In this document: piece by piece, positions 9,430 to 52,990 of the stretch | Layout: each line of letters opens with the position of its first letter | Numbering within the stretch: the first letter of the stretch is position 1 | Assembly (NCBI GenBank): GCA_965200555.1 | Contig: OZ241365.1 | Location: 920,605-984,604, forward strand | Reading direction: 5' to 3' | Origin: Dehalococcoidia bacterium | GTDB lineage: Bacteria; Chloroflexota; Dehalococcoidia; UBA2979 | Length of the DNA stretch: 64,000 nt | Notes under the pieces: generated by a model | Told to the model about the DNA's origin: nothing | Database searches by the model: none | The model's input: the letters and a program-made list of their open reading frames with translations, nothing else | Position numbers and translations under genes: made by a program

Positions 9430-10773
9430 CTACGGCGTCGCGGCGTCCGGGCCGGGAAGCTCCGCTTCCCAGAGGATGCCGCCGGCGTCGTACTGGCCAG
9501 TGACGACGCGGACGAGGGGGTACGGGGGGAGTTCGACCGCCGTCATGCACCGCCCCCCGTGGTGCAGCCCGCCGTCGGCGAAAGCGAAGCCGGCGGTGTT
9601 GTACGGCTGCTCGCCTTCGAGGTCGTCCTCGCCGGCGGGGTAGTAGCGCAGGAAGAAGCGGCCCGCAGTGTCCGAGGCGGTGCACTCCTCCCGCGCCCAC
9701 GTCAGCGTGCGCCCGTCGAGGTACAGGCCGAAGGCCGCGTCCGCCGCCGGCTCGCCGGCCGTCGCGGCGTCCCAGCGGGCGAGCCACCCCCCGGCGTCGA
9801 GCGGGAACCCCGCGGCCCAGATCGTGCCGTCGGCGTCGTACTGGCCGGCGACGATGCGGTCGAGGCCGTAGGCGGGCGCCTCGACCGCCGTCATGCACCG
9901 CCCCCCGTGGTGCAGGCCGCCGTCGGCGAAGGCGAAGCCGGCGGTGTTGTACGGCTGCTCGCCCTCGAGGTCGTCCTCGGCGGCGGGGTAGTAGCGCACG
10001 AAGAAGCGGCCCGCGGTGTCCGAGGCGGTGCACCCCTCGCGCGCGAGGGTCAGCGTGCGCCCGTCGAGGTACACGCCGAAGGGGCCGCGCAACCTCGGTT
10101 CGCCGGACGTGGCGGCGTCCCAGCGGGCGAGCCACCCCTCGGCGGCGAGCGGGAACCCGGCGGCCCAGATCGTGCCGTCCTCGTCGTACTGGCCGGCGAC
10201 GATGCGGTCGAGGCCGTAGGCGGGCGCCTCGATCCTCATCATGCACATGTCCTCGTGGTACACGCCGTCGTCGGCGAAGCCGAAGCCGGCGGTGTTGTAC
10301 GGGTCCCCGCCTTCGAGGTCGTCCGCGTCGGCGGGGTAGTAGCGCACGAAGAAGCGGCCCGCGGTGTCCGAGGCGGAGCACTCCTCCCGCACCCAGGTCA
10401 GCGTGCGCCCGTCGAGGTAAAGGTCGAAGGGGCCGCGCAGCACCGGCCCGCCGGACGTGGCGGCGTCCCAGCGGGCGCGCCACGCCCCGGCGTTGAGCGG
10501 CGTCCCCCCGGACCCGGCGAGGCCGCCGCCGGAACCGGCAGCCGCCGTCGCGTCCGGCGTCGCCGTCGCGTCCGGCGCCGGCGCGGTCGGCGTCGCGGTG
10601 GGCGTGGGCGGGGCGGAGACGGCGGCCCCGTCCGGCAAGGGGCCTCCCGCGGGGTCGAACGGCACGACGAGCACGAAGACGGCGGCGGCCATCGCCAGCA
10701 GCACCGAAGCGGCGGCGAAGAAGTGGACGGGGCGTGCGGCCCGCAGGGCCGGCGCGACGAATGCCGACAGCAT
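9430..10773 (-). CDS. Secreted/membrane-anchored protein with three tandem ~116-aa repeats (unknown function)
   Basis: The start is MLSAFVAPALRAARPVHFFAAASVLLAMAAAVFVLVV (signal anchor), followed by a Pro/Thr/Ala-rich linker. Three repeats follow of W(L)ARWDAATSGxPxLRGPFxxYLDGRTLTxxREECxASDTAGRFFVRYYPAxxDDLEGxxPYNTAGFxFADxGxxHxxxCMxxxExPxYGLDRIVAGQYDxDGTIWAAGFPL. The upstream part of the track ORF (to 12102) is antisense artefact. Confidence 0.6.
   Translation of the reverse strand: MLSAFVAPALRAARPVHFFAAASVLLAMAAAVFVLVVPFDPAGGPLPDGAAVSAPPTPTATPTAPAPDATATPDATAAAGSGGGLAGSGGTPLNAGAWRARWDAATSGGPVLRGPFDLYLDGRTLTWVREECSASDTAGRFFVRYYPADADDLEGGDPYNTAGFGFADDGVYHEDMCMMRIEAPAYGLDRIVAGQYDEDGTIWAAGFPLAAEGWLARWDAATSGEPRLRGPFGVYLDGRTLTLAREGCTASDTAGRFFVRYYPAAEDDLEGEQPYNTAGFAFADGGLHHGGRCMTAVEAPAYGLDRIVAGQYDADGTIWAAGFPLDAGGWLARWDAATAGEPAADAAFGLYLDGRTLTWAREECTASDTAGRFFLRYYPAGEDDLEGEQPYNTAGFAFADGGLHHGGRCMTAVELPPYPLVRVVTGQYDAGGILWEAELPGPDAATP
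9470..10560. repeat. Tandem DNA repeat, period about 348 bp, three copies (encodes the protein repeats of the 9430..10773 gene)
   Basis: The same string (e.g. gtcatgcaccgccccccgtggtgcag) recurs at 9544 and 9892, with a diverged copy near 10240. Duplicated small plus-strand ORFs at 9668..9871 and 10016..10219 give near-identical peptides. Confidence 0.7.
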
Positions 10774-10908
10774 GGACGCCTTACCCCCGCGCGCCGTGGA
10801 GAGCGGAGCATAGGCGGGCGGACGCTTGACCGGAAGAGCGGGGGCTCGCTCGCGCGGAACGGCGCGGAGGGCGATACTGGCGGCGGCGGGGCCGCGGCAG
10901 GAGGCGTC

Positions 10909-12168
10909 GTGGCGTCCCGATCCCCCCGCATCGCGCACCTCGCACGGCTCGCGGTCGCCGTCGCGCTGCTGGCGGCGGCGGGTCTCGCGGCGCCCGCGGC
11001 CGCCGCCGGGCCGTTCGAGGCGGGCACGCGCCTCGTGCTGCGCGGCGAGAGCGGCGACTGCGTGCCGCTGCGCGCCGCGCCCTCGCTGTCCGCGTCGTCG
11101 GCGTACTGCGCGCCCGACGGCAGCGCCGCGACCGCGACCGGCGACCGCATCGCGGGCGACGGCCTCGACTGGGAGTACGTCCTCGCCGACGGGGGCCGCG
11201 GGTACGCGCCCGCCGCCCGCCTCGAACGCGCGGGCGCGGGCGGCGCGCCGCCCGCCGGGGCCGCGGCGCTGCCCGTCCCGCCGCCGGGCGGATTCGCGCA
11301 GGGCCTCGCGGGTACGTCGGACCCTCGCGGGCTGGTCGCGGCGCAGCCGTTCGCGGTCGCCGCGGTGTGGCTGTTCCAGCCGTCGAGCCAGACGTACCTG
11401 ACCTACGTCCCCGGCGCGCCCGCGTTCGTCAACACGCTCGGCGCCTCCTCGCTGCGCCCGGACAGCGCCGTCACCGTGCGGCGGGCGGGCGAGCTCGACC
11501 GCGCGGCGCTGCCGCCGCCCCCCGCCGCGCCCGCGGGCGCGGCGATCGAGGGCGCGCCGAACGTCTTCCCGGCGCCGCCCGCGGGCGGCTTCGCGCAGGG
11601 CGTCTCCGGCACGAACGACCCCGCCGCGCTCGCCGCCGCGCAGCCGTTCGGGGTGCGCGCGATCTGGGTGCTCGACACGCCCTCGCAGCAGTGGCTGACC
11701 TACATCCCCGGCGCGCCCGCCGCCGTCAGCACGCTCGCGCGCGGCCTGCTGCGCCCCGGCAGCATCGTCACGATCGGCGCGGCCGCGGCCACGACCGCGC
11801 CGGCGCCCGAACCCGAGGCGGGAACGACGATCGAGACCACGATCACGTACTACTACTGCGAGGGCACGGGCGGCGACGGCGGCGGCTTCTGCGGCTACAT
11901 GGCGAACGGCCAGATCGTGCACGCCGGGGCCGCCGCCTGCGCCCGCTCCCGCCTCGGCGAGCGCTTCCGCATCGTCGGCGACCCGACCGTCTACACCTGC
12001 GAGGACACGGGCGGCGCCGTCCACGGCCACCACCGCGACATCTGGTTCCGCTACAGCGCCGACGCCGCAGCCTGGGCGCGGCGGATGCTCGACGCCGGCC
12101 ATTTCGAGGATCGCCAGCTCGCCGACGGCAGCTGGCGGCGCTACGGCCGCATCGAGATCCTGCCGTAG
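10909..12168 (+). CDS. Secreted cell-wall-associated protein: SH3b-like domain, two ~65-aa repeats, C-terminal 3D domain (MltA/YabE/Rpf-type)
   Basis: GTG at 10909 is preceded by AGGAGG. The signal peptide is ASRSPRIAHLARLAVAVALLAAAGLAAPAAAAG. The C-terminus TITYYYCEGTGGDGGGFCGYMANGQIVHAGAAACARSRLGERFRIVGDPTVYTCEDTGGAVHGHHRDIWF...YGRIEIL matches the 3D-domain pattern (YC..G.T..G....G.vA......lG......G....v.DtGGAi.G..iDi.f...A..fG...v.iL). It is divergent from the repeat-protein gene, with a 135-bp shared intergenic region. Confidence 0.7.
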   Translation: MASRSPRIAHLARLAVAVALLAAAGLAAPAAAAGPFEAGTRLVLRGESGDCVPLRAAPSLSASSAYCAPDGSAATATGDRIAGDGLDWEYVLADGGRGYAPAARLERAGAGGAPPAGAAALPVPPPGGFAQGLAGTSDPRGLVAAQPFAVAAVWLFQPSSQTYLTYVPGAPAFVNTLGASSLRPDSAVTVRRAGELDRAALPPPPAAPAGAAIEGAPNVFPAPPAGGFAQGVSGTNDPAALAAAQPFGVRAIWVLDTPSQQWLTYIPGAPAAVSTLARGLLRPGSIVTIGAAAATTAPAPEPEAGTTIETTITYYYCEGTGGDGGGFCGYMANGQIVHAGAAACARSRLGERFRIVGDPTVYTCEDTGGAVHGHHRDIWFRYSADAAAWARRMLDAGHFEDRQLADGSWRRYGRIEILP

Positions 12169-20718: not shown

Positions 20719-21669
20719 ATGCGGTGGCGCTTGGCGTCCTTCGGTCTCGCGTTCCTCGCGATGGCGACCGTTGCCGTCGCGGTCTCCGTGCGCGGCGGCG
20801 GCCCGGCGCAGCCCCTCGTGGCGCCGACCGCGACCGTCGCGCCCGATGTCGCGCCCACCTCCCCGCCGATCCCGCGGGTGGCGCTGGGCCGCTATCTCGA
20901 GGGCGGAGGCACCTACGCCTTCCCCGGCGGCGCCTGGATCTTCGACGTGCCCGAGGGCATGCAGCTGCAGCACCACTGGCGGGCGAGCGGTGGCAGCGCA
21001 ACCTCTTACGGGTTCCTGAATCAGGCGACCGGCGCCTCTTTCAGTTTCAACGTGAAACCGGACAGCGCAGAGTTCCAGCTACAGGCACAGGCCACAATTC
21101 CCGCAGCTCGCGAGCTCGCTTCCGTTTGGCTGGACGCCGTAGAGGCGTCCGTCCGCCGCCCGCCGGGCTTCGTGGAGCCTCCGCCCACGCCCGTCCCGGG
21201 GCCGGGCGCGAACCCCGACGGCGTCCCCTACCTCCGCGGCTACGGCCTCCACGAAGAGGTGTTCGCGGGCGGGCGCACCTACGCCACTCCCGACGACCAG
21301 TGGCTCGTCGACGTGCCGGCCGGGCTCAGCGTCATGTTCCACGAGAATACCCAGGCCATGCCGACCTGCCTGGCACCCTCGACGGCGGCCTCGTGCGGTG
21401 AAGCCGTCGACACCTACGGTTTCGACGCCGTCGGGATACGGTCGAGCGTCTACATCAACAAAACGACGGGCAAGTTTGCTGGACGGAGCGGGGTCGTCAA
21501 CCCGCAGATGGATGCGTTGGCTGCTTCGTTCAAATCGGTTCGCGCCATGCGGTGGCGATGGGCGTCCTTCGGTCTCGCGTTCCTCGCGATGGCGGCCGTT
21601 GCCGTCGCGATCACCGTGCGCGCCGGCGACCCGGCGCAGCCCCTCGCGACGCCGACCGTTCGGTGGTGA
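20719..21669 (+). CDS. Secreted paralog P1 (signal anchor MRWRLASFGLAFLAMATVAVAV + two copies of a GGRTY...DVPxGM module), C-terminally fused in frame to a truncated next unit
   Basis: Read from the track translation. After ...MDALAASFKSV the ORF reads through RAMRWRWASFGLAFLAMAAVAVAITVRAGDPAQPLATPTVRW*, which is the N-terminus of another unit and indicates an unequal-crossover junction. Confidence 0.55.
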   Translation: MRWRLASFGLAFLAMATVAVAVSVRGGGPAQPLVAPTATVAPDVAPTSPPIPRVALGRYLEGGGTYAFPGGAWIFDVPEGMQLQHHWRASGGSATSYGFLNQATGASFSFNVKPDSAEFQLQAQATIPAARELASVWLDAVEASVRRPPGFVEPPPTPVPGPGANPDGVPYLRGYGLHEEVFAGGRTYATPDDQWLVDVPAGLSVMFHENTQAMPTCLAPSTAASCGEAVDTYGFDAVGIRSSVYINKTTGKFAGRSGVVNPQMDALAASFKSVRAMRWRWASFGLAFLAMAAVAVAITVRAGDPAQPLATPTVRW

Positions 21670-21871: not shown

Positions 21872-22927
21872 ATGCGGTGGCGCTTGGCGTCCTTCGGTCT
21901 CGCGTTCCTCGCGGTGGCGGCCGTCGCGGTCGCGATCGCCGTGCGCGCCGGCGGCCCGGCGCAGCCCCTCGCGGCGTCGACCGCGACCGTCGCGCCCGAT
22001 GTCGCGCCCACCGCCGCGCCGACGCTCACCCCCGAGACAGCTCCGGCGCCCACCCCCACGCCGATCCCGCAGGTGGAGCCCGGCGACTTCCTCGAGGGCG
22101 GACGCACCTACGCCCTCCCCGGCGGCGCCTGGATCTTCGACGTGCCCGAGGGCATGCGCCTGTGGCACAACGGAGACGAACCGGGGAAGAACCCCGGGGA
22201 CCCGCCGAACGGCTTCGGCTTCATGGACCGCGTGACCGGCTCCCTGATCACCATCTACCTGCGGCCGGACGGGTCCCTCGACTTCTACGGCTTCAACTAC
22301 GGGTCCACTCCCGAGGCCCGCGAGCTCGCGGACGCCTGGCTGCCCGCGATCGAGGCGTCCCTCCGCCGCCCGCCGGGCTTCGTGGAGCCTCCGCCCACGC
22401 CCGCGCCCGTCTTCCCGGGTCCGGGCGCGAACCCCGACGGCGTCCCCTACCTGCGCGACTACGGCCTCCACGACGAGGTGTTCGCGGGCGGGCGCACCTA
22501 CGCCACTCCCGACGACAAGTGGCTCGTCGACGTGCCGGCCGGGCTCAGCGTCATGTTCCACGAGAATACCCAGGCCATGTCGGTCTGCCCGCCGGGCTCG
22601 AGGGCCTCGTGCGGTGAAGCCGTCGACACCTACCTTTTCGACGCCGTCGGGATATGGTCGAGCGTCTACATCAGCAAAACGACGGGCAAGGTCGCTGGAC
22701 GGATCGCTGGACGGAGCGGGGATGTCAACTCGCAGATGGATGCGTTGGCCGCTTCGTTCAGATCGGTTCGCGCCATGCGGTGGCGCCGGGCGTCCTTCGG
22801 TCTCGCGTTCCTCGCGATGGGGGCCGTTGCCGTCGCGATCACCGTGCGCGCCAGCGAGTTTGCTGGACGAAGCGGGGTCGTCAACTCGCAGATGGATGCG
22901 CTGGCTGCTTCGTTCAGGAAGCCGTAG
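21872..22927 (+). CDS. Secreted paralog P2 (most complete copy; signal anchor, PT linker, two GGRTY...DVPxGM modules, C-terminus ...ASFRKP)
   Basis: 351 aa. It contains the in-frame micro-unit insert RAMRWRRASFGLAFLAMGAVAVAITVRA before the canonical C-terminus. Confidence 0.55.
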   Translation: MRWRLASFGLAFLAVAAVAVAIAVRAGGPAQPLAASTATVAPDVAPTAAPTLTPETAPAPTPTPIPQVEPGDFLEGGRTYALPGGAWIFDVPEGMRLWHNGDEPGKNPGDPPNGFGFMDRVTGSLITIYLRPDGSLDFYGFNYGSTPEARELADAWLPAIEASLRRPPGFVEPPPTPAPVFPGPGANPDGVPYLRDYGLHDEVFAGGRTYATPDDKWLVDVPAGLSVMFHENTQAMSVCPPGSRASCGEAVDTYLFDAVGIWSSVYISKTTGKVAGRIAGRSGDVNSQMDALAASFRSVRAMRWRRASFGLAFLAMGAVAVAITVRASEFAGRSGVVNSQMDALAASFRKP

Positions 22928-23002: not shown

Positions 23003-23737
23003 ATGCGGTGGCGCTTGGCGTCCTTCGGTCTCGCGTCCCTCGCGGTGGCGGCCGTCGCGGTCGCGGTCGCCGTGCGCGCCGGCGGCCCGGCGCAGCCCCT
23101 CGCGGCGTCGACCGCGACCGTCGCGCCCGAGGCCGCGCCCACCGTCGCGCCGACGCTCACCCCCGAGACAGATCCGGCGCCCACCCCCACGCCGATCCCG
23201 CAGGTGGAGCCCGACGCCGACCTCGAGGGCGGACGCACCTACGCCCTCGGGGGCGCCTGGATCTTCGACGTGCCCGAGGGCATGCGCCTGTGGCACACCG
23301 GGGGACCGCCGGGCGGCTTCGGCTTCATGGACCGCGTGACCGGTTCCGTGATCACCATCTACCTGCAGCCGGACGGGTCCCTCGACTTCTACGGCTTCAA
23401 CCACGGGTCCACCCCCGAGGAGCGTGAGCTCGCGGACGCCTGGCTGCCCGCGATCGAGGCGTCCGTCCGCCGCCCGCCGGGCTATGTGTACCCTCCGCCC
23501 ACGCCCGCGCCCGTCTTCCCGGGGCCGGGCGCGAACCCCGACGGCGTCCCCTACCTCCGCGACTACGGCTTCCACGAAGAGGTGTTCGAGGGCGGGCGCA
23601 CCTACGCCACTCCCGACGACCAGTGGCTCGTCGACGTGCCGACGGGCATCAGCATCCGCTTGGGCCTTGTGTTGGTTATGGCACATACCCTGCATACCCC
23701 GCACCCGCCCGCCACCGAAGCGTATAAAATTTTCTAA
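23003..23737 (+). pseudogene. Paralog P3, C-terminally disrupted
   Basis: Homology to P1/P2 holds up to ...WLVDVPTGISI and then diverges into a lower-GC segment (about 23650-23830), ending KIF*. The canonical C-terminal motif (YLDMLAASFRR) reappears in another frame (ORF 23424..23981), and further unit fragments extend to about 23960. Confidence 0.5.
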
Positions 23738-24116
23738 TGACGCGGACACGGCGGAATGGATAGCCGTCAGCAAGGACAGAGGCAGAGTCGTCGGTATCAG
23801 TGGCCAGCCCGGTCGTCCCGACAACACGTATCTGGATATGCTGGCTGCCTCGTTCAGAAGGAACTCCACGCCTGCAGACACCTCGACGCTCGTCTCCGCG
23901 CTCTGCTGCGCGCTCCTGCTCGGCCTCAACGCAGCACGCCGATCCCGCAGGCGGCGCTCGGCGCGTTCTCGCGTCCCGTAATCCGATCGCCGGCGGGCCG
24001 GACGGCGCGCCGCGCCCGCGCGCCGGCGCGGGCCGCGGGCACGCGCAGGAAGCGCCGCCGCAGCGCGGCGGGCCGCGCCGCTTCACGCGGCGAGGGGCGG
24101 CGCGTACCCTTGAGGC

Positions 24117-36301: not shown

Positions 36302-37350
36302 TGTAGGTCCCAGGGAGGTTGTTGACAGGCGAGGAGCCTCGCTGCTGCCGTTGCGTGAGCAACAGCGACGACGGCAGGAGGCTCCTCGTGTCCCACCCTA
36401 ACGCACGGTTGACCCCGAAGGCGCGCCTCGACCTCGTGTTGGAGGTCGAGGCCGGCTGGACCCGGGCCGAGGCGGCGCGGCGGTTCCGTGTCTCGCGCGC
36501 CACCGCCGCCAAGTGGGTGCGCCGCTACCGCGGCGAGGGCGAGGCCGGCCTGCGCGACCGCTGCTCACGCCCGCGCCGGTCGCCCGGCATCACGGCGCCG
36601 TCCGAGGCGGAGGCCGTCCTCGGGTTGCGCCGCGAGCGCGGCTGGGGGCCGCACCGCATCGCCTGGGCGCTGGGCATGGCCCCCTCCACCGCATACGCCG
36701 TCCTGCGCCGGGCCGGTCTCCACCGCCGCGACCGGATGCACCGCGTCAGCCGCGAGGTCGTGCGCTACGAGCGCGGCAGGCCGGGCGAGCTGCTGCACCT
36801 CGACGTCAAGAAGCTCGGGCGCGTCCCGCCGGGCGGCGGCAAGCGCTTCGCGCCCGGCTTCGCGGAGACCCGCAGCGGACCGAGGGGCAGGGGCAGGGGC
36901 GGCGGCGGCATCGACTGCGTGCACGTCGCCGTGGACGACCGCTCGCGCTACGCCTACGCCGAGGCGCTGCCGGACGAGCGCGGCGTCACCACCGCGGCCT
37001 TCCTCGAGCGGGCGATCGCCCGCTTCGCCGGCCTCGGCGTGCGGGTGGAGCGGGTGCTCACCGACAACGGCGGGAACTACCTCAGCGGCGCCTTCCGCGA
37101 GATGGCCGCGGCGCACGGGGTGGGGCTGCGGCGGACGAGGCCGTACCGGCCGCAGACCAACGGCAAGGCCGAGGCGTTCATCAAGATCCTGCAGGACGAG
37201 TGGGCGTACCGGCGCGCCTACGGCTCGAACGCGGAGCGGCTCGCCGCGCTCCCGCTCTTCCTGAGCGAGTACAATCACGCCCGTCCGCACGGCGGCATCG
37301 GCGGGGCCGTCCCCGCCTCCCGCCTGTAAACAACGTCCCTGGGACCTACA
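36302..37350 (+). mobile_element. IS481-family insertion sequence (1049 bp) with 28-bp imperfect terminal inverted repeats (TGTAGGTCCCAGGGAGGTTGTTGACAGG / ...CCTGTAAACAACGTCCCTGGGACCTACA) and 6-bp target site duplication CCTAGT (36296-36301 and 37351-37356)
   Basis: The TIRs (26/28 identity) and the flanking direct repeats were read directly. The single ORF encodes an IS481-type DDE transposase. Confidence 0.85.
36388..37329 (+). CDS. IS481-family transposase (HTH + DDE rve integrase core)
   Basis: GTG start with AGGAGG 7 nt upstream. VSHPNARLTPKARLDLV is the typical IS481 N-terminus, and the DDE-domain motifs include HLDVKKL..., VHVAVDDRSRYAY, and TDNGGNY...NGKAE. Confidence 0.85.
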   Translation: MSHPNARLTPKARLDLVLEVEAGWTRAEAARRFRVSRATAAKWVRRYRGEGEAGLRDRCSRPRRSPGITAPSEAEAVLGLRRERGWGPHRIAWALGMAPSTAYAVLRRAGLHRRDRMHRVSREVVRYERGRPGELLHLDVKKLGRVPPGGGKRFAPGFAETRSGPRGRGRGGGGIDCVHVAVDDRSRYAYAEALPDERGVTTAAFLERAIARFAGLGVRVERVLTDNGGNYLSGAFREMAAAHGVGLRRTRPYRPQTNGKAEAFIKILQDEWAYRRAYGSNAERLAALPLFLSEYNHARPHGGIGGAVPASRL

Positions 37351-37858: not shown

Positions 37859-40800
37859 TCAGGGCGCGGCCCGCAGCCTGGCGGCGGCGGAGGCGACGAT
37901 CGCGTCGAACAGCGCGCCCACGTCCCGGGAAGCCGTTCCCGAAGCGCCCGCCGCCGCTGCATCGATCAGGCGGCCGTGCTCCTCGCCGGTGAAGCCGTCC
38001 ACGAGCAGCAGCGAACCGCTCTCTTCGTCGTCCAGCCTCACCGTGAACGTCCCGTCGTCGTTGAGCGCCCATCCACGGTAGACGAGCGTCATGCCCGCCG
38101 GTACGTCGACGACGAGGCCCGACGAGACGCGGTACGCGCGTGCGCCCTCGACCGGCTGTCCGCGACGCATCCGCGGGATGCCGTCGGCTCCCACCTCGAG
38201 GGGCGGCGGCGGGCCCCACCGGAACTCGACGGCGGCATCGGCTTCGACACGGAACCTGCCGTCGGCATCGTGGCAATCGTACTCGTAGGCTACTCCTTCG
38301 ACGGAAAATCGCTTACGAGGCGGCATGGGCGGGTCCGCCAGCACGGCCGTCACCTCGTAGTGACCCCAGCAGCCGTCGGCGTGCCATACGGTGAATTCGT
38401 CGCCGACCTCGACCCCGCCGTAGAAATTGGACCGCGATACGCCCCCTGCGTCCGTCGGGTGCACCAGCAGGCCTCCGGCGTGATCTCGAATCCACGCAGA
38501 TCCACTAAACCCGCTCGTCAGGTCGCTGGCGTCCTCGAGGAAGGCGTAGCTGCCCGGCGCGATGGCGCCGCCCGTCGTGTCGCGTCGGTGGTAGCGCAGC
38601 ACGGCCTCGCCCTCGCCGGTCCTCGCGGAGGCGGCGATCAGGTCGAACAGCGCGCCCACGTTCCTCGCCGCGCCGGAAGCGGTGACGCGGCGGCCGGTCT
38701 CGCCGCCGTGCCAGCCGCCCACGAGGAGCAGCGAGCCGCTGGCTTCGTCCTCCAGTCTCGCCGAAACCGTCCATGCGTCGTTGCGCGTCCACCCCCTGTG
38801 GACGAGCGTCATCCCCGCGGGCACGTCGACGACGAGGGACGACGAGACGCGGTACGCGCGTCCGCCCTCGGATGGCCGACCGAGGCGCAGCCACGGGATG
38901 CCGTCTGCTCTCGCGTCGGGCCGCGCGGAGGCGGCGATCAGGTCGAACGCCAGGCTCACGTCCGGGCGCGATCCGGGAGTGATCGTGCGTCCGAAATCCG
39001 CGCCCGTCTCGGCGGCAAGAAACAGGCGGGAGCCGCTCTCCTCGTCCTTCAGCACGACTTCCTCTTCGCCGGGGGAAGGATTGCTGAGGATCACCCAAGC
39101 GAATATCAACCTCATGCCCGCCGGTACGTCGATGACGAAACTGCGTCCGCGCTCTCCGAGACGATACGTCCCGCCTCCGACCGGCTGGCCCTGCCGCATC
39201 CACGGGATACCGTCGGCGCCTACTTCGAGGGGCGGCGGCGGACCCCACCGGAACTCGATGGCGACAGCGGGTTCCGCGGTGTCGCCGCAGCCTTCGCTTT
39301 CGTAGGTGACGCTCTCGATGGCGAACCGCTTGCGCGGCGGATCGGGCGGGTCCGCCAGCACGGCCGTCACCTCGTAGTGGCCCCAGCAATCCGCGGCGAC
39401 CCATGCGGTGAACTCGTCGCCGGCCTCGACATCTCCATAGAAGCCCGACCGCGACACGCCGCCGGCGTCCGTCTGGTGCACCAGCAGACCTTCGCCGAAG
39501 ACGCTCAGCCACGCGGAACCGGCATCCCCGCCCGTCAGGTCGCTGGCGTTCCTGAGGAAGGCGTAGCTGCCCGGCGCGATGGCGCCGCCCGTCGTGTCGC
39601 GGCGGTCGTAGGGCAGCACAGCCCCGCCGGCGGGCTCGGGCGGGCGGCAGAGGCCGAGCGCGGCCTCGATCGCCGCGGCGGGGTCGCCGCCGCGCATCGC
39701 CCCGGCGTAGCCGCGCACCGAGCATTCGAGGCCCGACGCGGCGTCGAAGACGCGCACGAACACGCTCAGGCGCGGGTCGTGCGCGGGGCCGGGCGGGCTG
39801 TAGCGCACGAGCGCCGGACGCCCGCCGGCGACGCGCGCCTCGGTGACGGACGAGCCGTCGCCGCCGCGCGCCGCCCAGACGTAGTCCGGCTGCGCGCCGA
39901 GGCGCCGCACCTCGGCGCGCAGCGCCGTGCGGCCGGCGGCGTCGTCCCAGATCGCGCGGTAGCCGTCCGCCGGGGCGGTGCGCGTGCCCGCCTCCGCCAG
40001 CGCGAGCGTCCAGCCCTCCGGCAGCCCCGCCGGGTCGCGCCAGAGCGCGATCCGTCGGCGCGCCTCGGCCGCGTCCGAGGTCTCGAACGGCGCGGCGGCG
40101 TCTCCCGGCGGCGGCGAGGCCCCGCCCCGCGGCTCGACCGACGCGCCCGCGGCCGGCAGCGCGCGTCCGTCCGAGGGCGCCGCGACGCCCTCCCAGTCGG
40201 TCGGGATCAGCAGCCACGGCCCGTGGCGCGCGGGCGCCTCCAGCGTTGCGGCGGCGAGGGGCGGAGGGTTCCACGAGACCTCGGCGTCCGCGTCCGCCGC
40301 GATCGCGCCCGCGCAGCCGGCCGCGGCCCAGGTCAGCGGTTCGACGGCGAACCCGTCGCGCTCTCCCCGCGGGAGCGCAGTCGCCAGATACCGCACCCAG
40401 CAGCCGTCCGCCGCGCGCCATTCGAGGACGCCGCCGGCTTCCGCGCCCTCGTAGGCGAGGGCCGCGCCGTCCGCGCCCGCGCCGAGGCGCAGCACGGCGG
40501 CGTCGCGGCGCAGGCCCTCCCACGTCGCGATCGGCTCGCCGTCCGCGTCGAGGAAGGCGTACGCGCCCGCCGCCAACGCCTCGCCCGTCGCGTCGAGGCG
40601 GTCGTAGCGCGCCGTCGGCGGCGGCGCGCCGGGCGGCGCCGGCGTCCCGTCGGCGCAGGCGAGCAGCAGCGGCTCGCCCGCGGGCGGCGAGGCGTCCTCG
40701 TGGCGGTCGAGGAAGGCGCGGTTGGCGGCGGCGGACGCGCCGAAGCGGTAGCGGACGAAGCCGCCGTCCGCGCCGTTCGCCCACGCCGAGCGCAGCGCGC

Positions 40801-41338
40801 AGCCGCCCGCCGCGGACGCCGCGCCGCCGAGCCTCTCGAGCGTCCCGCCCGGCCACGCGATCAGCTCCACGCCGCGCGTGGGCGGCGGCGCGGCGAGCGG
40901 CCACGGCGAGGGCGCGGGCGGCGGATCGAGCCGCGCGAGGAAGCCGCTCGCCACCCACCCGCCCAGGCGCGGGCCGGCGGCGACCGCCTCCCATACGTAG
41001 CCGTCGGCCTCGGCGCGCTCGCCGCGGGCGGTCAGCCCCGTGCCCTCGGGCAGGCAGGCCGCGATCGGCGCGGCGAGGGCGGGCGCGGCGCGCAGGTTGA
41101 GGCAGGTGTCGCCGGCGGTGTCCACCACGACGCGCGCCCCCCCGGCGAGCGGCCCGCCCGCGTCCGCGCGCCCGCCCCCGAGGGCGAGCGCGGCCAGCGC
41201 GAGGGCGGCTGCGAGCAGCGCGAGCGCGTCGCGTCGAGGGCGCATCGTGCGGCCTCCGATCGCGCGCAGCATACGCCGCGCGGCGCGGGCGGCGGCGTCA
41301 GGCGCCGGAGGGGGAAGGCCGTCCGGCGTCCGCGGCAC
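37859..41338 (-). CDS. Large secreted surface protein (SH3b-like N-domain + two ~330-aa internal repeats containing GGxxY...DVPAGM modules)
   Basis: Track ORF of 1159 aa. The probable true start is the internal ATG near 41270 (MRPRRDALALLAAALALAALALGGGRADA signal peptide), which avoids overlap with the DUF4145 gene end at 41298. The module DGIPW(L/M)R..G....GG.(T/A)YR.......V(I/V)DVPAGM.L occurs three times, and the VLPYDRRDTTGGAIAPGSYAFL... repeat occurs twice. Confidence 0.6.
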   Translation of the reverse strand: MPRTPDGLPPPAPDAAARAARRMLRAIGGRTMRPRRDALALLAAALALAALALGGGRADAGGPLAGGARVVVDTAGDTCLNLRAAPALAAPIAACLPEGTGLTARGERAEADGYVWEAVAAGPRLGGWVASGFLARLDPPPAPSPWPLAAPPPTRGVELIAWPGGTLERLGGAASAAGGCALRSAWANGADGGFVRYRFGASAAANRAFLDRHEDASPPAGEPLLLACADGTPAPPGAPPPTARYDRLDATGEALAAGAYAFLDADGEPIATWEGLRRDAAVLRLGAGADGAALAYEGAEAGGVLEWRAADGCWVRYLATALPRGERDGFAVEPLTWAAAGCAGAIAADADAEVSWNPPPLAAATLEAPARHGPWLLIPTDWEGVAAPSDGRALPAAGASVEPRGGASPPPGDAAAPFETSDAAEARRRIALWRDPAGLPEGWTLALAEAGTRTAPADGYRAIWDDAAGRTALRAEVRRLGAQPDYVWAARGGDGSSVTEARVAGGRPALVRYSPPGPAHDPRLSVFVRVFDAASGLECSVRGYAGAMRGGDPAAAIEAALGLCRPPEPAGGAVLPYDRRDTTGGAIAPGSYAFLRNASDLTGGDAGSAWLSVFGEGLLVHQTDAGGVSRSGFYGDVEAGDEFTAWVAADCWGHYEVTAVLADPPDPPRKRFAIESVTYESEGCGDTAEPAVAIEFRWGPPPPLEVGADGIPWMRQGQPVGGGTYRLGERGRSFVIDVPAGMRLIFAWVILSNPSPGEEEVVLKDEESGSRLFLAAETGADFGRTITPGSRPDVSLAFDLIAASARPDARADGIPWLRLGRPSEGGRAYRVSSSLVVDVPAGMTLVHRGWTRNDAWTVSARLEDEASGSLLLVGGWHGGETGRRVTASGAARNVGALFDLIAASARTGEGEAVLRYHRRDTTGGAIAPGSYAFLEDASDLTSGFSGSAWIRDHAGGLLVHPTDAGGVSRSNFYGGVEVGDEFTVWHADGCWGHYEVTAVLADPPMPPRKRFSVEGVAYEYDCHDADGRFRVEADAAVEFRWGPPPPLEVGADGIPRMRRGQPVEGARAYRVSSGLVVDVPAGMTLVYRGWALNDDGTFTVRLDDEESGSLLLVDGFTGEEHGRLIDAAAAGASGTASRDVGALFDAIVASAAARLRAAP

Positions 41339-41951
41339 GCCCGTCGAACTCGCGCCGCCGCGCCTCGTTCCTGCCGGGAGCGACGAAGTAGTAGTCGAAC
41401 AGCCCGTCCACGACCTCCAGCGCCCACTCCGCCTCGCCGGGGCCGACGGGCATGATCTCGCCCGTATGCTCCGACTCGATCGGGTGAGCGGCGAAGTTCC
41501 CGATCTCGCGCAGGTAGTGGAGGTTGCGGCTCAGCGCCGAGGGAGTGCGTTCGTCCTCGACGAAGGCGCCGATCTGCCGGGCAAGGGTCGTCTGCTCGTA
41601 ACCGCCTTGCCCGGTCAGCACCTGCTGCACGATCCGGCGCGCCAGCGCGGCGCTCGCCTGCGGGCTGAGCGCGAGGATGGCGACGGCCTCGGCGTAGTCG
41701 GAGCGCAGCGGTTCGGGGACCTCGGGCGGAGCCGTGCGGCCGGTGGCGTTCCGCGGGTAGGCGACGTACTCTTCCACCTCCTCCTCCACCTCGCCGTCGC
41801 CCCTGCCCGCGCGGATCCGGATGATGCTCTTGCGGCACCGAGGGCACAGCGTGCTCTGGACGTAGACGGTGGCGTTCTCGCCGGGACTGTCGGTCGACAG
41901 CGCATTCCGCCACTGGTCGTGAAACTCGATCGTGCAGTGCGGGCACTTCAT
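41298..41951 (-). CDS. Zinc-ribbon + DUF4145 (HEPN-like) domain protein
   Basis: The start is MKCPHCTIEF...LCPRCRKS (C4 ribbon), and the C-terminal domain carries the LHYLREIGNFAAHP motif characteristic of DUF4145 (membership of the HEPN clan is recalled, not verified). It lies 22 nt downstream of recQ on the same strand. Confidence 0.55.
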   Translation of the reverse strand: MKCPHCTIEFHDQWRNALSTDSPGENATVYVQSTLCPRCRKSIIRIRAGRGDGEVEEEVEEYVAYPRNATGRTAPPEVPEPLRSDYAEAVAILALSPQASAALARRIVQQVLTGQGGYEQTTLARQIGAFVEDERTPSALSRNLHYLREIGNFAAHPIESEHTGEIMPVGPGEAEWALEVVDGLFDYYFVAPGRNEARRREFDGRAADAGRPSPSGA

Positions 41952-41973
41952 CGCTTGTTCCCCCCTCCCCCCG

Positions 41974-48770: not shown

Positions 48771-50453
48771 GTGACGCGGAAGCTGGCGCTGGCGGGACTG
48801 GTCGTCGCCGTGCTCGTCGCGGGCGCGGCGTCCGCGCTGGCGCAGGACGCAGGGTCCGAGGTGCGGATCGCCGCGCGGCGGCTCGCCGACGGGCGCGTCG
48901 AGTTCGCGCTGCAGCCCCGCTCCGGCGGCGGCTGGGGCGCGCGCGTGCTGCCGTCCAGCCGCTACTTCCCCGCGAACGCCGCCGTCGGCCGCTGGCTCAG
49001 CTCCTCGCCGGTGGACGCCGGCGGTGTCGAGGTGCGGATCAGCGCACAACGGCTCGCCGACGGGCGCGTCGAGTTCGCGCTGCAGCCGCGCGCGGGCGGC
49101 GGCTGGGGCGAGCGCGTCCTGCCGTCCAGCCGCTACTTCCCCGCGAACGCCGCCGCCGGCCGCTGGCTCAGCTCCTCGCCGGTGGCGCTCGGCGGCGCGG
49201 CGGCGATGACGGGCGACGATCCCGCCTCGTGCGCCCTCGCCGACCATATCGACCGCGTGAGGGCCGCGACGTTCCAGGTGCGGACCGCCTCCGGCGCCGG
49301 TACGGCCTTCTACATCGGCAACGACGAGTGGCTGACGAACCACCACGTCGTCGAGGACGCGACGCGGGCCGAGCTGGTCCACGGCGGCACTCGCCTCTCC
49401 GCCGCCGTCGCGGGCAGCCTGCCGGGGTACGACCTCGCGCTGCTGAGGGCGCGGCCTCCGTCCTCGGTGCGCCCGCTCCGCCTCGCCGCCGCGAGGCCGG
49501 CGGTGCTGGCGAGCGTGGCGGTGGTGGGGTTCCCGCCCCCCGTCTCGGGCACCCCGTCGGCCACCCGCGGGGTGGTGTCGAAGCACGCCCCGTTCTCCCA
49601 ATTCCCGGACCAGCTCGACGGCAGCGGCGTCGTGCTGCAGACCGACGCCGAGATCAACCCCGGCAACAGCGGCGGCCCCATCGTCGACGGCTGCGGTACG
49701 GTGGCCGCCGTCGCCACGTTCAAGCGGTCCTCGTCGCAGGACGGACGCGACGTCGACGGCATCGGCTTCGGCGTCGCCGCCGAGACGGTCGCCGCGCGGC
49801 TCGCCCAGCTGCGCTCTACCGAGCATGTGGCGGGAGGCGCGCCGCAAGCCGCCGCCGAGGCCGCCTTCAATACCTGTATGGCGAACTGGGGCGACACCTA
49901 TGGCAACCAGATTGGGGCCACTCTCGCCGCCATCCGCACTGTTGAGGACATCGAGGACGAGGTTACCGGGTGGGGCGTACCCACCTCTTACATTACCGCC
50001 ATCTACGCCGACCCCAGCATCATTCCCCCCGGTGGTCTCTTCGTAACCCCGGGGTTTCCCCTCGGCACTGATAGCCCAGGCGTTTTCAGAATCTTCGGTG
50101 GCAACTTTGACAACCTGCGGGCGCTGATCCAAGGGGCCACTGGGGTTGCGATTATTCGCGACGACTCGATCGGTTTCGCTACAGCGGCGACTCGTCGCGA
50201 GACGCTCTCTGTGGACAGGTTCTTCTTTCGGCTGGATATTATTCGCGAGACTTGGCATTACTCCATCAGCCCGTGGTTCGCTCCTGCCGATCAGGGGCCG
50301 TTGAGTCTGGACTTCACAGCTGCGAAGAACTCTCTGGAGGCTAACAGGCTTCGGCTGGTGGGGCTGCAGGCGGCTGACCGAGACAACTGGGAACGCTACT
50401 GCGCGTCGGCGGCTGGACAAACTGTTGGGCCGGACGAGCATACCCCCCGATAG
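48771..50453 (+). CDS. Secreted trypsin-like (S1/chymotrypsin family) serine protease with two N-terminal ~52-aa tandem repeats and a C-terminal extension encoded by lower-GC DNA
   Basis: Signal peptide MTRKLALAGLVVAVLVAGAASALA. The repeats are EVRIAARRLADGRVEFALQPRSGGGWGARVLPSSRYFPANAAVGRWLSSSPV, present twice. The catalytic His is in TAFYIGNDEWLTNHHVV and the Ser in NPGNSGGPIVD. From about 49860 the coding DNA drops to roughly 58% GC. Confidence 0.7.
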   Translation: MTRKLALAGLVVAVLVAGAASALAQDAGSEVRIAARRLADGRVEFALQPRSGGGWGARVLPSSRYFPANAAVGRWLSSSPVDAGGVEVRISAQRLADGRVEFALQPRAGGGWGERVLPSSRYFPANAAAGRWLSSSPVALGGAAAMTGDDPASCALADHIDRVRAATFQVRTASGAGTAFYIGNDEWLTNHHVVEDATRAELVHGGTRLSAAVAGSLPGYDLALLRARPPSSVRPLRLAAARPAVLASVAVVGFPPPVSGTPSATRGVVSKHAPFSQFPDQLDGSGVVLQTDAEINPGNSGGPIVDGCGTVAAVATFKRSSSQDGRDVDGIGFGVAAETVAARLAQLRSTEHVAGGAPQAAAEAAFNTCMANWGDTYGNQIGATLAAIRTVEDIEDEVTGWGVPTSYITAIYADPSIIPPGGLFVTPGFPLGTDSPGVFRIFGGNFDNLRALIQGATGVAIIRDDSIGFATAATRRETLSVDRFFFRLDIIRETWHYSISPWFAPADQGPLSLDFTAAKNSLEANRLRLVGLQAADRDNWERYCASAAGQTVGPDEHTPR

Positions 50454-50682
50454 TGAAGGCTCGTGCCCCTCGAACTTCAGCGCCGTCGTGACCGAACCCG
50501 AGCGTTAGCCGCGCCGATCCCTCGCGCGAGCCTCGATGCGTCGCGCGGCGTCAGCCGGCGGGGGCGAGCGGGGCCGCCGCCGGGTAGAACACAGCGGATG
50601 CTCGCCCGACAGCGGGGGCATCAAAGGCACGCCAGCTCCCAACGGCCGCTGGTTCCACTTCATGCACATCCTGCTGTGGCAG

Positions 50683-51786
50683 CTAGGTCAATCCCAAAAG
50701 GAACTCGCGAGGCTGGCGCACACGCTTAATCCTGAAGTTGGCGACACGTACCCCATCATCAGCAAGGTACGTTGTCTTGCGAGACCCTTCTCGCACTGCA
50801 GTGATGTAATCGTTGAACCGCCTGATCATCACATCCCTTTTCTCCCAATCAAGAGAATCCCACCAAGTGGGAGCAATACAGAGACTTTCGGACGCTTCGA
50901 TCAAGAAACGAATCAAGGCATCAGGCATGTCTTCCCGTCCTATGCTCAGTAGCGACTTGGCGAATCGCACCGGGGCTGTTGATCCACGCAACCAGGACAG
51001 AATAACCGCACCACTTCCGGGAGTTGCTATACTGGAAACAAGCAGTTGCTCCATGGGGATATCGACTTGCATCTGATTCTGTAGCAAATTTCCTTTAAAA
51101 TCGCAGTCTGGCATCCATGCGAAGCTCGCGAGTATCGGCGGATGTCGGTCCGTTTCCAACACGAGAGACCGGATTTCATCGAAACGGCTCATCTGCAGGT
51201 AACGATCCAAATCCGCTTTGACCCTTTGCAAATCCGCACGCCCGAGACGTATGCCTATTCTCTGGTGGTTCAAAAACTCTTGAGTCTCCTTTTGTCCCGC
51301 TGGGGGCATCCCGCGGTCAGCGTTGAGTTTAGCCCACTGGATGTGTTGTTCTGCTCCGATCTTGAAGTACAGCTCACGACTGGCCGCCCTGAAAGCGAAG
51401 AGGAAGTTCTGCTGATCCGAAAAATCGATGGTATTCCCTTTCTCGATGGGATCGAACAACGCATCATGCGCTTGGCAGAATCCTCTGAAGATAGATGCTT
51501 GGCTGACACCGAACAACCTCGGAAGCACTTGGTGGTCACTCACTGCGCGCCTGAAGTAATAGACATGTCCACCCTCAGCGATAGCGGACAACATGGCGAG
51601 CTGCACACCGTGGGCGCGTATGGCGGGGCCGCAGCCTGTCGGCGCATCCGGGTGCAAGCATTCCTCGCGCCCGACGAAGTAAGTTTGTTCGGCTCGGTGC
51701 ATCTCAGAAAGACTCAAGGGGGGTTGATCTTCGCGCCCGCGATGGCACTGAGCGAACTCGACGCCAGAGTCACACCAGCACAGCAT
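50683..51786 (-). CDS. SEC-C metal-binding motif protein of unknown function on a ~50% GC island
   Basis: The start is chosen at MLCWCDSGVEFAQCH (C-x-C-x-S-G-x5-C-H, the SecA C-terminal SEC-C motif). The rest of the 367 aa has no recognised domain. The track ORF extends upstream to 51963 in high-GC DNA that overlaps the livM 3' end. Confidence 0.5.
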   Translation of the reverse strand: MLCWCDSGVEFAQCHRGREDQPPLSLSEMHRAEQTYFVGREECLHPDAPTGCGPAIRAHGVQLAMLSAIAEGGHVYYFRRAVSDHQVLPRLFGVSQASIFRGFCQAHDALFDPIEKGNTIDFSDQQNFLFAFRAASRELYFKIGAEQHIQWAKLNADRGMPPAGQKETQEFLNHQRIGIRLGRADLQRVKADLDRYLQMSRFDEIRSLVLETDRHPPILASFAWMPDCDFKGNLLQNQMQVDIPMEQLLVSSIATPGSGAVILSWLRGSTAPVRFAKSLLSIGREDMPDALIRFLIEASESLCIAPTWWDSLDWEKRDVMIRRFNDYITAVREGSRKTTYLADDGVRVANFRIKRVRQPREFLLGLT

Positions 51787-51898
51787 ATCCCGGCGGCCCC
51801 TACCTGCGCTCTGGATGGTAGCACTCCACGTTGCCGTCTCGCAACTGCAGGTCGATACACCCCGACTGATATCGCCGCCCGCGCACGGCACGCGGCGG

Positions 51899-52990
51899 TC
51901 AGCCGGCGAGGGCGCGGAGGCGCGCGCGCAGCGCGGCGAGGGGCGAGCCGGGGCCGCCTCCACCGCCGCCTCCCTCGCCGCGCGGGGCGAAGCGGCTGAC
52001 GATCGCGCGCTCGGGGACGAGGCCCTGCGGGCGCGCCAGCACGAACAGCACGATCAGCAGCCCGATCGCCACCCGCCGCAGCACGAACACGCGCGTCCCG
52101 AGGAAGTCCGGCAGGCTCTCCTGGAACAGCGGCAGCCCGAACCACACGAACGCCACCACCAGCGCCCCCACGACGGCGCCGCGGTTGTTGCCGCTGCCGC
52201 CCACGATCACCATCGTCCAGACGAGGAACGTCATCAGGTTCTCGAACGAGTCGGGCGCGATCGTGCCGTAGCGGTGCGCCCAGATCGCGCCCGCCAGCCC
52301 CATCAGCGCCCCGCCCAGCACGAAGCTCTGCATCCGGTAGCTGGCCGTCCACTTGCCGACCGAGCGCGCGGTGTCCTCGTTCTCGCGGATCGCGCGCAGC
52401 ACGCGGCCCCACGGCGAGGCCGTCGCCCCCCGCACCGCGACGAACACGGCGGCCAGCGTCAGCAGCGTGATCGCCAGCAGCACGAGGTCGTAGTCGATGC
52501 CGCGCTCGCCGGCGGCGGCCTCGAACGGCCTCGGGATGCCGTTGAGGCCGCGCGCGCGGTTGACGAGGCCCTCCTGCGTGTTGGCGATGCTCCGCAGGAT
52601 CGAGGTGATGCCGATCGTCGCGATCGCGAGGAAGTCGTCGCGCAGCCGCAGCGTCGGCAGCCCCACCAGCAGCGCGAGCGCGGCGCCGGCGGCCATGCCG
52701 CCCAGCCAGCCGATCGGGATCGGCAGCTCGTACCCGCCGACGTAGCTCTCGAACTGGCCGGGCGGGTCGAGCGTCAGCAGCGCGCTGGCGTAGGCGCCGA
52801 CGGCGAGGTAGGCGATCACGCCGAAGTTGACCGTGCCGGTGTAGCCCCACTGCACGTTCAGCGCGAGCGTGGCGATGCCGAGGATCGCCGCCGTCGTGAG
52901 GAACCCGACGGTCCAGTTCGCGCCGCCGGTCACGGAGATCTGCAGCGCCCCGTCGAGCGGCAGTCCCGCCAGCCCCGCCAGCGCCTCCAC
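51899..52990 (-). CDS. livM: Branched-chain amino acid ABC transporter permease (LivM-like)
   Basis: It is polytopic and has the LivM pattern ...NFGVIAYLAVGAY...; the C-terminus is Gly-rich. Confidence 0.8.
   Translation of the reverse strand: MEALAGLAGLPLDGALQISVTGGANWTVGFLTTAAILGIATLALNVQWGYTGTVNFGVIAYLAVGAYASALLTLDPPGQFESYVGGYELPIPIGWLGGMAAGAALALLVGLPTLRLRDDFLAIATIGITSILRSIANTQEGLVNRARGLNGIPRPFEAAAGERGIDYDLVLLAITLLTLAAVFVAVRGATASPWGRVLRAIRENEDTARSVGKWTASYRMQSFVLGGALMGLAGAIWAHRYGTIAPDSFENLMTFLVWTMVIVGGSGNNRGAVVGALVVAFVWFGLPLFQESLPDFLGTRVFVLRRVAIGLLIVLFVLARPQGLVPERAIVSRFAPRGEGGGGGGGPGSPLAALRARLRALAG

Follow-up and report, generated by a model that had tools for sequence, protein, structure and literature searches.

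In sponge symbionts, genes encoding fibronectin type III (fn3) and leucine-rich repeat (LRR) domains are enriched, and fn3 is especially abundant in the Chloroflexota (PMC8163846). The Tepidiformaceae are prevalent in sponges, and cultured Tepidiforma have been described as monoderm bacteria that have a layer of peptidoglycan as well as an S-layer (PMC10284905). Surveys of symbiont attachment and tolerance are based on counts of known Pfam domains, among them fn3, LRR, ankyrin and cadherin. The present analysis concerns two repeated modules, A and B, encoded in a 64,000-nucleotide stretch of a Dehalococcoidia bacterium genome (Chloroflexota; contig OZ241365.1, positions 920,605 to 984,604), hereafter the window. 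Module B is found three times in a giant predicted surface protein and recurs in an array of three small paralogs (P1, P2 and P3) encoded elsewhere in the window. Module B is a genuine, autonomously folding and probably extracellular domain of about 105 residues that is currently unannotated in the databases searched, and it is a putative distal ligand-binding (adhesion) head of surface proteins.

A domain shared by the giant protein and the small paralogs

A first-pass annotation of the window, made from the sequence, had proposed that one module is common to the giant protein and the paralog array. In a six-frame motif search, the pattern DGIP[WR][ML]R...V[IV]DVPAGM was found three times in the minus-strand open reading frame (ORF) of the giant protein (37859-41338, 1159 codons), and the pattern DGVPYLR...DVP[AT]G[LI], together with a second unit, GG.TY...IFDVPEGM, in each of three plus-strand ORFs, namely those of P1 and P2 (coordinates in Table 1) and 23003-23737 for P3; no further occurrence was found in the window. 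The three copies in the giant protein, of about 100-110 residues and 44-63% identical among themselves, were recovered equally by motif search, self-BLAST and a profile hidden Markov model (HMM), and an HMM scan of all window ORFs yielded nine instances of module B, of which eight are complete and the ninth is interrupted by a frameshift. The claim of two modules in each small paralog agrees with the HMM results, but the motif as first described does not extend to all of them, the first modules carrying IPQVEPG in place of DG[IV]P.

The identity between the B copies of the giant protein and the modules of the small paralogs is merely 22-29%, and homology was therefore tested in three ways. An HMM built from the three copies of the giant protein alone found every small paralog and its relatives, with both modules of each, at 31-56 bits (corresponding, in a database of a million sequences, to E-values between 1e-13 and 1e-5). 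When the same proteins were shuffled or reversed, none of the approximately 270 resulting sequences exceeded 6 bits. In profile-profile comparisons, hhalign aligned the B modules of the giant protein with domains 1 and 2 of the small paralogs at probabilities of 97.3% and 97.5% (P = 2.6e-11 and 6.8e-12), and domain 1 with domain 2 at 99.1%. The three tests agree on a common module, and, since the profile-profile scores are significant, low-complexity composition, which the first-pass annotation had named as an explanation that would undo its proposal, does not account for the similarity. The consensus of module B reads G.DGIP...EGGrTYR...vIDVPaGMrL...L.D..SGS.L.lD..TGeE..R...RDVgALFDqIvASaR.

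The further proposal that the module maps to no known Pfam family was borne out. No Pfam-A family covers module B in the window proteins or in 77 relatives, and none was matched by more than one of 63 isolated B modules even at E<=10. Likewise, no curated NCBIfam model lies over module B in the window proteins, the 77 relatives or the 63 isolated modules, and the NCBIfam matches obtained in the relatives fall on LRR regions (XopAC, XopL, internalin). A match to the NCBIfam model "invert_tail" in a single relative was dismissed, as it did not recur on the isolated modules. Among PDB sequences, no match to module B was found.

Predicted fold, distribution and domain partners

A beta-sandwich or lectin-like fold had been envisaged for the module, and structure prediction gives a different picture. 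For P2, modelled by AlphaFold2 with 16 homologs, both modules reach a predicted local distance difference test score (pLDDT) of about 85-95; for the third copy of the giant protein (B3), modelled with 63 modules, the pLDDT is 93.2 and the predicted template modelling score 0.85. In the B3 model, seven strands run antiparallel and are accompanied by a short helix and by a C-terminal helix of 18 residues, so that the predicted fold of module B is of the alpha+beta type, a seven-stranded antiparallel meander sheet covered by a long C-terminal helix. Conservation, assessed over 266 module instances, is highest at P33 (100%), S103 (97%), the arginine of the C-terminal AS.R motif (92%), G6, G18, G35, G71 and D98, and the strongly conserved polar residues are D31, D57, R76, D98, S103 and the AS.R arginine. 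The beta4-beta5 hairpin and the loop preceding the helix are hypervariable.

Word-indexed searches yielded 4 relatives of the giant protein and 18 of the small paralogs, nearly all from metagenome assemblies in ENA and none annotated; a third search of this type, for which the module profile was used, gave no more than 17 short proteins. One relative bearing module B is annotated merely as a hypothetical protein of a Chloroflexi metagenome-assembled genome (MAG). A profile search of 18 modules against 1.84 billion cluster representatives, in contrast, identified 225 protein clusters at E<=1e-3, 84 of them at E<=1e-10, with most matches covering the whole module. The proteins are mostly precursors with a signal peptide or lipoprotein signal, with the module in C-terminal position: of 126 relatives, 78 have their final B ending no more than 15 residues from the C-terminus, and an N-terminal hydrophobic signal is present in 75, of which 28 have a lipobox-like motif as called by a regular expression. 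The giant protein and small paralogs of the window have no lipobox cysteine. Module B occurs in one to five copies per protein, alone, in tandem, or following module A or fn3. Among 77 relatives, the partner domains are fn3 (31/77), LRR (19/77) and the InlB B-repeat (6/77), and one protein (from locus L005) combines LRR, B-repeat, fn3 and module B in that order. At the other extreme stand proteins of 131-149 residues that consist of a signal and one module B, with nothing else. Shared sortase-dependent anchoring, suggested as a possible common trait, has to be given up: an LPXTG-like motif lies within the last 60 residues of only 2 of 173 proteins, neither from the window, and a sortase signal (LPXTG, hydrophobic stretch and charged tail) or any other C-terminal sorting signal is absent.

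Module A, absent from the first-pass annotation, is a second repeat of the giant protein, about 135 residues long and present in three copies, with the consensus RYD..DTTG.A..PGSYAFL...CW.RYRVT.V..P...RK.F...C...W.PPP and two invariant cysteines. It has no Pfam or PDB sequence match. Module A was found in 47 relatives and lies in nearly all of them directly before B; A-B is therefore a recurrent two-domain unit.

Taxonomic origin was addressed with a single peptide pattern, RDV[GN]ALFDxI, for which one genome of each GTDB species was scanned. All 19 confirmed genome loci belong to Dehalococcoidia, Tepidiformaceae or unclassified "Chloroflexi bacterium" MAGs, one of which, SB0661_bin_44 (locus L003), was obtained from the sponge Ircinia ramosa (PMC8163846 supplement), so that a sponge origin holds for at least one of the MAGs of the relatives. 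No relative of phage origin or among phage receptor-binding proteins was found among the viral contigs of IMG/VR. The family had been called lineage-specific and locally expanded. The first term stands in so far as all 19 loci are of Chloroflexota type, but, with 225 cluster representatives, the family is far wider than this locus. The second holds both in the window, with its tandem array, and in several other genomes, in which arrays of two to four B-bearing genes, some with fn3 or LRR, were found (Table 1); local expansion is therefore a general habit of the family.

The giant gene, the paralog array and their surroundings

The length of 1159 residues initially given for the giant protein has to be corrected, as a database protein (P0001, 1128 residues) is identical to it from Met32 onward and marks this residue as the annotated start; its homologs are 90%, 82% and 56% identical. 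According to self-BLAST and HMMs, its signal peptide is followed, in this order, by the SH3b-like domain, region X, A1, region Y and A2-B1-B2-A3-B3. The N-terminus has the features of a typical signal peptide, MRPRRDALALLAAALALAALALGGGRADA, as predicted from its sequence. Regions X and Y have no Pfam match and no PDB sequence match, and the idea that region X (residues 140-240) corresponds to the internal repeats of the 3D-domain protein discussed below was ruled out by the lack of BLAST similarity.

Table 1. Positions of the giant gene, its modules and related features (window coordinates unless a locus is named).
Feature	Position	Strand	Remarks	Basis
Giant surface-protein gene	37859..41245	-	Met32 as likely start, 1128 aa	ORF, database copy
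Predicted Sec signal peptide of the giant protein	41159..41245	-	MRPRRDALALLAAALALAALALGGGRADA	Reading of the sequence
SH3b-like N-terminal domain of the giant protein	40928..41140	-	aa 67-137	SH3_3, BLAST, LysB4 profile match
Module A copy 1	40244..40618	-	Divergent	Self-BLAST, HMM
Module A copy 2	39215..39622	-	About 135 aa, two invariant Cys, directly upstream of B1	
Module A copy 3	38186..38605	-	Directly upstream of B3	Self-BLAST, HMM
Module B copy 1	38915..39226	-	DGIPWMR...GGGTYR...VIDVPAGMRL...AFDLIAASAR	Motif, self-BLAST, HMM
Module B copy 2	38615..38917	-		Motif, self-BLAST, HMM
Module B copy 3	37862..38197	-	Structure predicted	Motif, self-BLAST, HMM, AlphaFold
Small paralog P1	20719..21669	+	B-type modules 20854-21162 and 21205-21546	
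Small paralog P2	21872..22927	+	B-type modules 22046-22372 and 22424-22768	
Small paralog P3	23003..23981	+	Module 1 23177-23476; module 2 23528-23698, then 23724-23864 in other frame	
Relic copy of paralog 5' region	21478..21629	+	Upstream sequence and signal-peptide codons; in-frame at P1 end	
Second relic of paralog 5' region	22706-22857	+	In-frame at P2 end	
Putative 3D-domain protein	10909..12168	+	SH3b-like domain at its N-terminus (about 11005-11241), a homolog of the one in the giant protein	
Tandem B-gene array, locus L002	1-6402		Other Dehalococcoidia/Tepidiformaceae genome	
Tandem B-gene array, locus L009	2007-7092		Other Dehalococcoidia/Tepidiformaceae genome	
Tandem B-gene array, locus L019	5035-8774		Other Dehalococcoidia/Tepidiformaceae genome	

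The small paralogs begin with a hydrophobic segment (MRWRLASFGLAFLAVAAVAVAIAV), an anchor or signal, followed by a Pro/Thr/Ala-rich linker and the two B-type modules, which are joined by RRPPG(F/Y)VEP. At the DNA level, the three genes are tandem copies repeated every 1.13-1.15 kb. One extra base (+1 frameshift) in an A4T4 run (23726-23733, plus strand) splits the second module of P3; with this base removed, P3 matches its relative P0013 to the end, and the downstream frame runs to 23981. The extra base could be an assembly error, the mark of a pseudogene or a phase-variable tract. The two relics of the paralog 5' region belong to a family of direct repeats with five copies (D2), and reading through them provides P1 and P2 with C-terminal hydrophobic tails, like those of several relatives. 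One relative, P0008, is chimeric and combines a first module of the P1 type with a second of the P2 type. Judged from these sequences, the relic tails and the chimera appear to be footprints of unequal crossing-over.

The proposal that the giant protein and the 3D-domain protein share a homologous, SH3b-like domain at their N-termini found support. The two domains are 45% identical over 64 residues, and a profile of four N-domain sequences matches the C-terminal cell-wall-binding region of the endolysin LysB4 (residues 212-254, E = 7.6e-5) and, more weakly, two other wall-binding domains of phages or amidases. Against Pfam SH3_3 (PF08239; gathering threshold 27 bits), the giant protein scores 15.4 bits (E = 0.021) and the 3D-domain protein 12.1 bits (E = 0.23). 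Given these sub-threshold scores and the LysB4 match, the label "SH3b-like" appears reasonable, yet falls short of formal family membership. Within the B family, this domain was seen only in the giant protein and three close homologs, none of the 77 other relatives scanned having it. The 3D domain itself (PF06725; gathering threshold 23.8 bits) is matched at 19.2 bits (E = 0.0015) and partially (positions 31-59 of 72), which is no more than suggestive of such a domain. The HMM scan found no module B in the 3D-domain protein.

Several features of this protein and of others in the window are recorded for their own sake. Residues 120-320 of the 3D-domain protein contain two unannotated repeats of about 85 residues, 56% identical to each other, with the pattern GGFAQG..G..DP..L.AAQPF.V.A.W......Q..LTY.PGAPA.V.TL. 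Head-to-head with it lies the gene of a probable secreted or membrane protein (9430-10791, minus strand) that has three repeats of about 125 residues (WLARWDAATSGEP...GRFFVRYYPA...PYNTAGF.FAD) and CBM_26 as its sole, sub-threshold Pfam match (E = 0.0023). At 48771-50453 (plus strand), two N-terminal repeats of about 50 residues (VRIAARRLADGRVEFALQPR...WG.RVLPSSRYFPANAA.GRWLSSSPV) precede a serine protease of trypsin-like type (Trypsin_2, E = 4e-25). The G+C content drops to 0.60 at 50001-52000, compared with 0.71-0.79 elsewhere in the window, and this stretch may have been acquired or may be a region with an RNA gene.

Around the giant gene, the window is syntenic with a 45-kb contig of a related strain (L020), and the shared order is periplasmic binding protein, RecQ, DUF4145, giant gene, IscA and VTT. 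The DUF4145 protein (41298-41963, minus strand), which has an N-terminal zinc-ribbon-like CxxC...CxxC pattern, sits between RecQ and the giant gene, an arrangement kept in L020. An IS481-family transposase (rve, LZ_Tnp_IS481; 36319-37329, plus strand) lies about 500 bases downstream of the giant stop codon, beyond the small IscA gene, and is missing at the corresponding place in L020. No conserved operon partner was found; the neighbours (RecQ, DUF4145, IscA, ATP synthase, murI, pyrF) are of the housekeeping kind and are syntenic in the relative. The B-bearing genes themselves vary: upstream of murI and pyrF, the number of small-paralog genes is one in the L020 strain, three in another strain and three here, and the giant gene encodes three B modules in each of two strains and two in another. 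Such variation in gene copy number and module number places this type of locus among the fastest-changing parts of otherwise syntenic genomes, a pattern typical of genes at the interface between an organism and its surroundings.

The role of module B and its relation to known systems

Chloroflexota of the Dehalococcoidia/Tepidiformaceae type, some of them sponge symbionts, would use module B as a building block of envelope proteins. The giant protein would be secreted and probably hold on to peptidoglycan through its SH3b-like domain, with the A-B units projecting outward, and the small paralogs would be three tandem membrane-anchored proteins, each made of a stalk and two B domains. Wherever an anchor can be recognised it would be N-terminal: many relatives have a lipobox-like motif, the small paralogs a hydrophobic segment with a Pro-rich stalk, and the giant protein its SH3b-like domain. 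The repertoire of B modules would have diversified by tandem duplication, unequal crossing-over and the gain or loss of modules. Because the anchors are N-terminal, B is usually the last domain and its partners are of the adhesion type, a distal binding head is the most likely role, although we give it only about an even chance of being correct. The cell-wall or adhesion role suggested initially is thereby narrowed: its cell-wall half depends on the SH3b-like domain, which, among the B proteins scanned, was seen only in the giant protein and three homologs, whereas the usual partners, fn3, LRR and InlB B-repeats, indicate adhesion rather than wall metabolism. On the whole, the tested parts of the first-pass interpretation held, and the breadth of the family, its fold, the sortase features and the cell-wall role were revised.

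Several considerations weigh against a binding head. A module that is C-terminal, repeated, restricted to a lineage and joined to varied passengers bears the classic signature of surface anchoring as well. The top conserved positions of B are mainly glycines and prolines of turns and residues of the helix, and may be purely structural. In cultured Tepidiforma an S-layer lies outside the wall, and a membrane-tethered protein may therefore never reach the outside. The sponge origin is established for the MAG of a relative and not for the genome of the window itself, and the taxonomy derives from one peptide pattern, so that other phyla may also carry the module.

The first of these considerations leads to an alternative that we regard as a tentative but serious possibility, namely that B serves to dock proteins to the envelope, its target being peptidoglycan, the S-layer or a wall polymer peculiar to the lineage, and holds passengers such as LRR and fn3 domains on the cell surface, as a functional analogue of GW, SLH or CWB2 repeats. 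It would fit the mostly C-terminal position of B, its one to five copies per protein, the variety of its N-terminal partners (including the InlB-like order described above), its restriction to one lineage whose cultured members have peptidoglycan as well as an S-layer, and the lack of a sortase or other C-terminal sorting signal that could serve instead. It is less easily reconciled with the N-terminal anchor that many of the proteins already possess (lipobox-like motif in 28, hydrophobic signal in 75, SH3b-like domain in the giant protein), with the internal position of B1 and B2 in the giant protein, and with the small paralogs and the putative lipoproteins of 131-149 residues, which consist of an anchor and B and have no passenger. 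As the sole domain of small putative lipoproteins, B is an autonomous functional unit and not a tag.

A more far-reaching version of the binding-head reading is that A and B are two new folds and the main adhesin or "surfaceome" toolkit of sponge-associated Dehalococcoidia, that B recognises a host ligand of the sponge matrix or cell surface, and that arrays, chimeras, relics and the frameshift reflect a display to the host resembling antigenic or phase variation; we consider this doubtful. It is rather unlikely that B lacks a ligand and merely lengthens or stabilises surface proteins, whether as a structural spacer or stalk element or as a unit of folding or oligomerisation. The regular, beads-on-a-string alternation of B with A or fn3 would agree with such a role, as would conserved positions that are mostly turn glycines and prolines and helix residues packing on the sheet. 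However, B is usually terminal and not internal, proteins made of an anchor and B alone exist, the polar residues D31, D57, R76, D98, S103 and the AS.R arginine are strongly conserved, and the beta4-beta5 hairpin is hypervariable, as a recognition surface would be. The chance that the shared motif is a by-product of extreme composition or belongs to an already described family is close to nil: the window has about 75% G+C, its proteins are rich in Ala, Gly, Pro and Arg and cross-family identity is low, but the shuffled and reversed controls, hhalign, the confident B3 model, the full-module matches in 225 independent clusters and the family scans together exclude both explanations.

The distal binding head, as the preferred role of B, can be set against several known systems. 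Among cell-surface proteins, the Listeria internalins (InlB, with LRR, B-repeat and C-terminal GW modules) are resembled by some relatives, which share, in the same order, the N-terminal signal, LRR, InlB B-repeat (Flg_new_2), fn3 and a terminal module, and the likeness extends to the modular architecture, the terminal repeats and the expanded family. The window proteins do not belong to the internalins, since the Pfam scan found no LRR in them and LRR occur only in some distant relatives. Unlike the terminal modules of InlB, B is not a GW or SH3-like domain, having no Pfam match and a predicted fold of sheet and helix; moreover, many B proteins are putative lipoproteins or membrane-anchored and come from Chloroflexota, not Bacillota. 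With SLH, CWB2, GW and choline-binding repeats, B has in common the C-terminal position, one to several tandem copies, varied passengers and lineage restriction, but it differs from them in the absence of any sequence or fold match, in the N-terminal anchors of many members and in the existence of module-only proteins. Likeness to bacterial SH3b cell-wall-binding domains (SH3_3, the LysB4 C-terminal domain) is limited to the N-domains of the giant and 3D-domain proteins, which give weak Pfam matches below the gathering score and are unrelated to module B. Structurally, the top weak matches of B are folds with an antiparallel sheet and a long helix (polo-box, Bet v 1/START, TULIP/BPI and the GNAT core), the common element being an antiparallel, curved sheet on which a C-terminal helix packs.

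The eukaryote-like and adhesion proteins of sponge symbionts (fn3, LRR, cadherin; PMC8163846) share partner domains and at least some source genomes (L003) with the B family. As these surveys count Pfam domains and no model for either A or B exists, both modules are invisible to them; B, present in no fewer than 225 protein clusters, and A, in no fewer than 47 proteins, are missed in this way, although they share their proteins with the adhesion domains and form arrays in genomes of Dehalococcoidia and Tepidiformaceae. Defining A and B provides two candidate new Pfam families, of use for annotation and for work on sponge symbiosis, and for B a confident structural model without a close solved relative as well as concrete constructs for binding work. 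On present evidence no new biological principle is involved: what is familiar is the modular bacterial surface protein, and what is new is two unannotated domain families.

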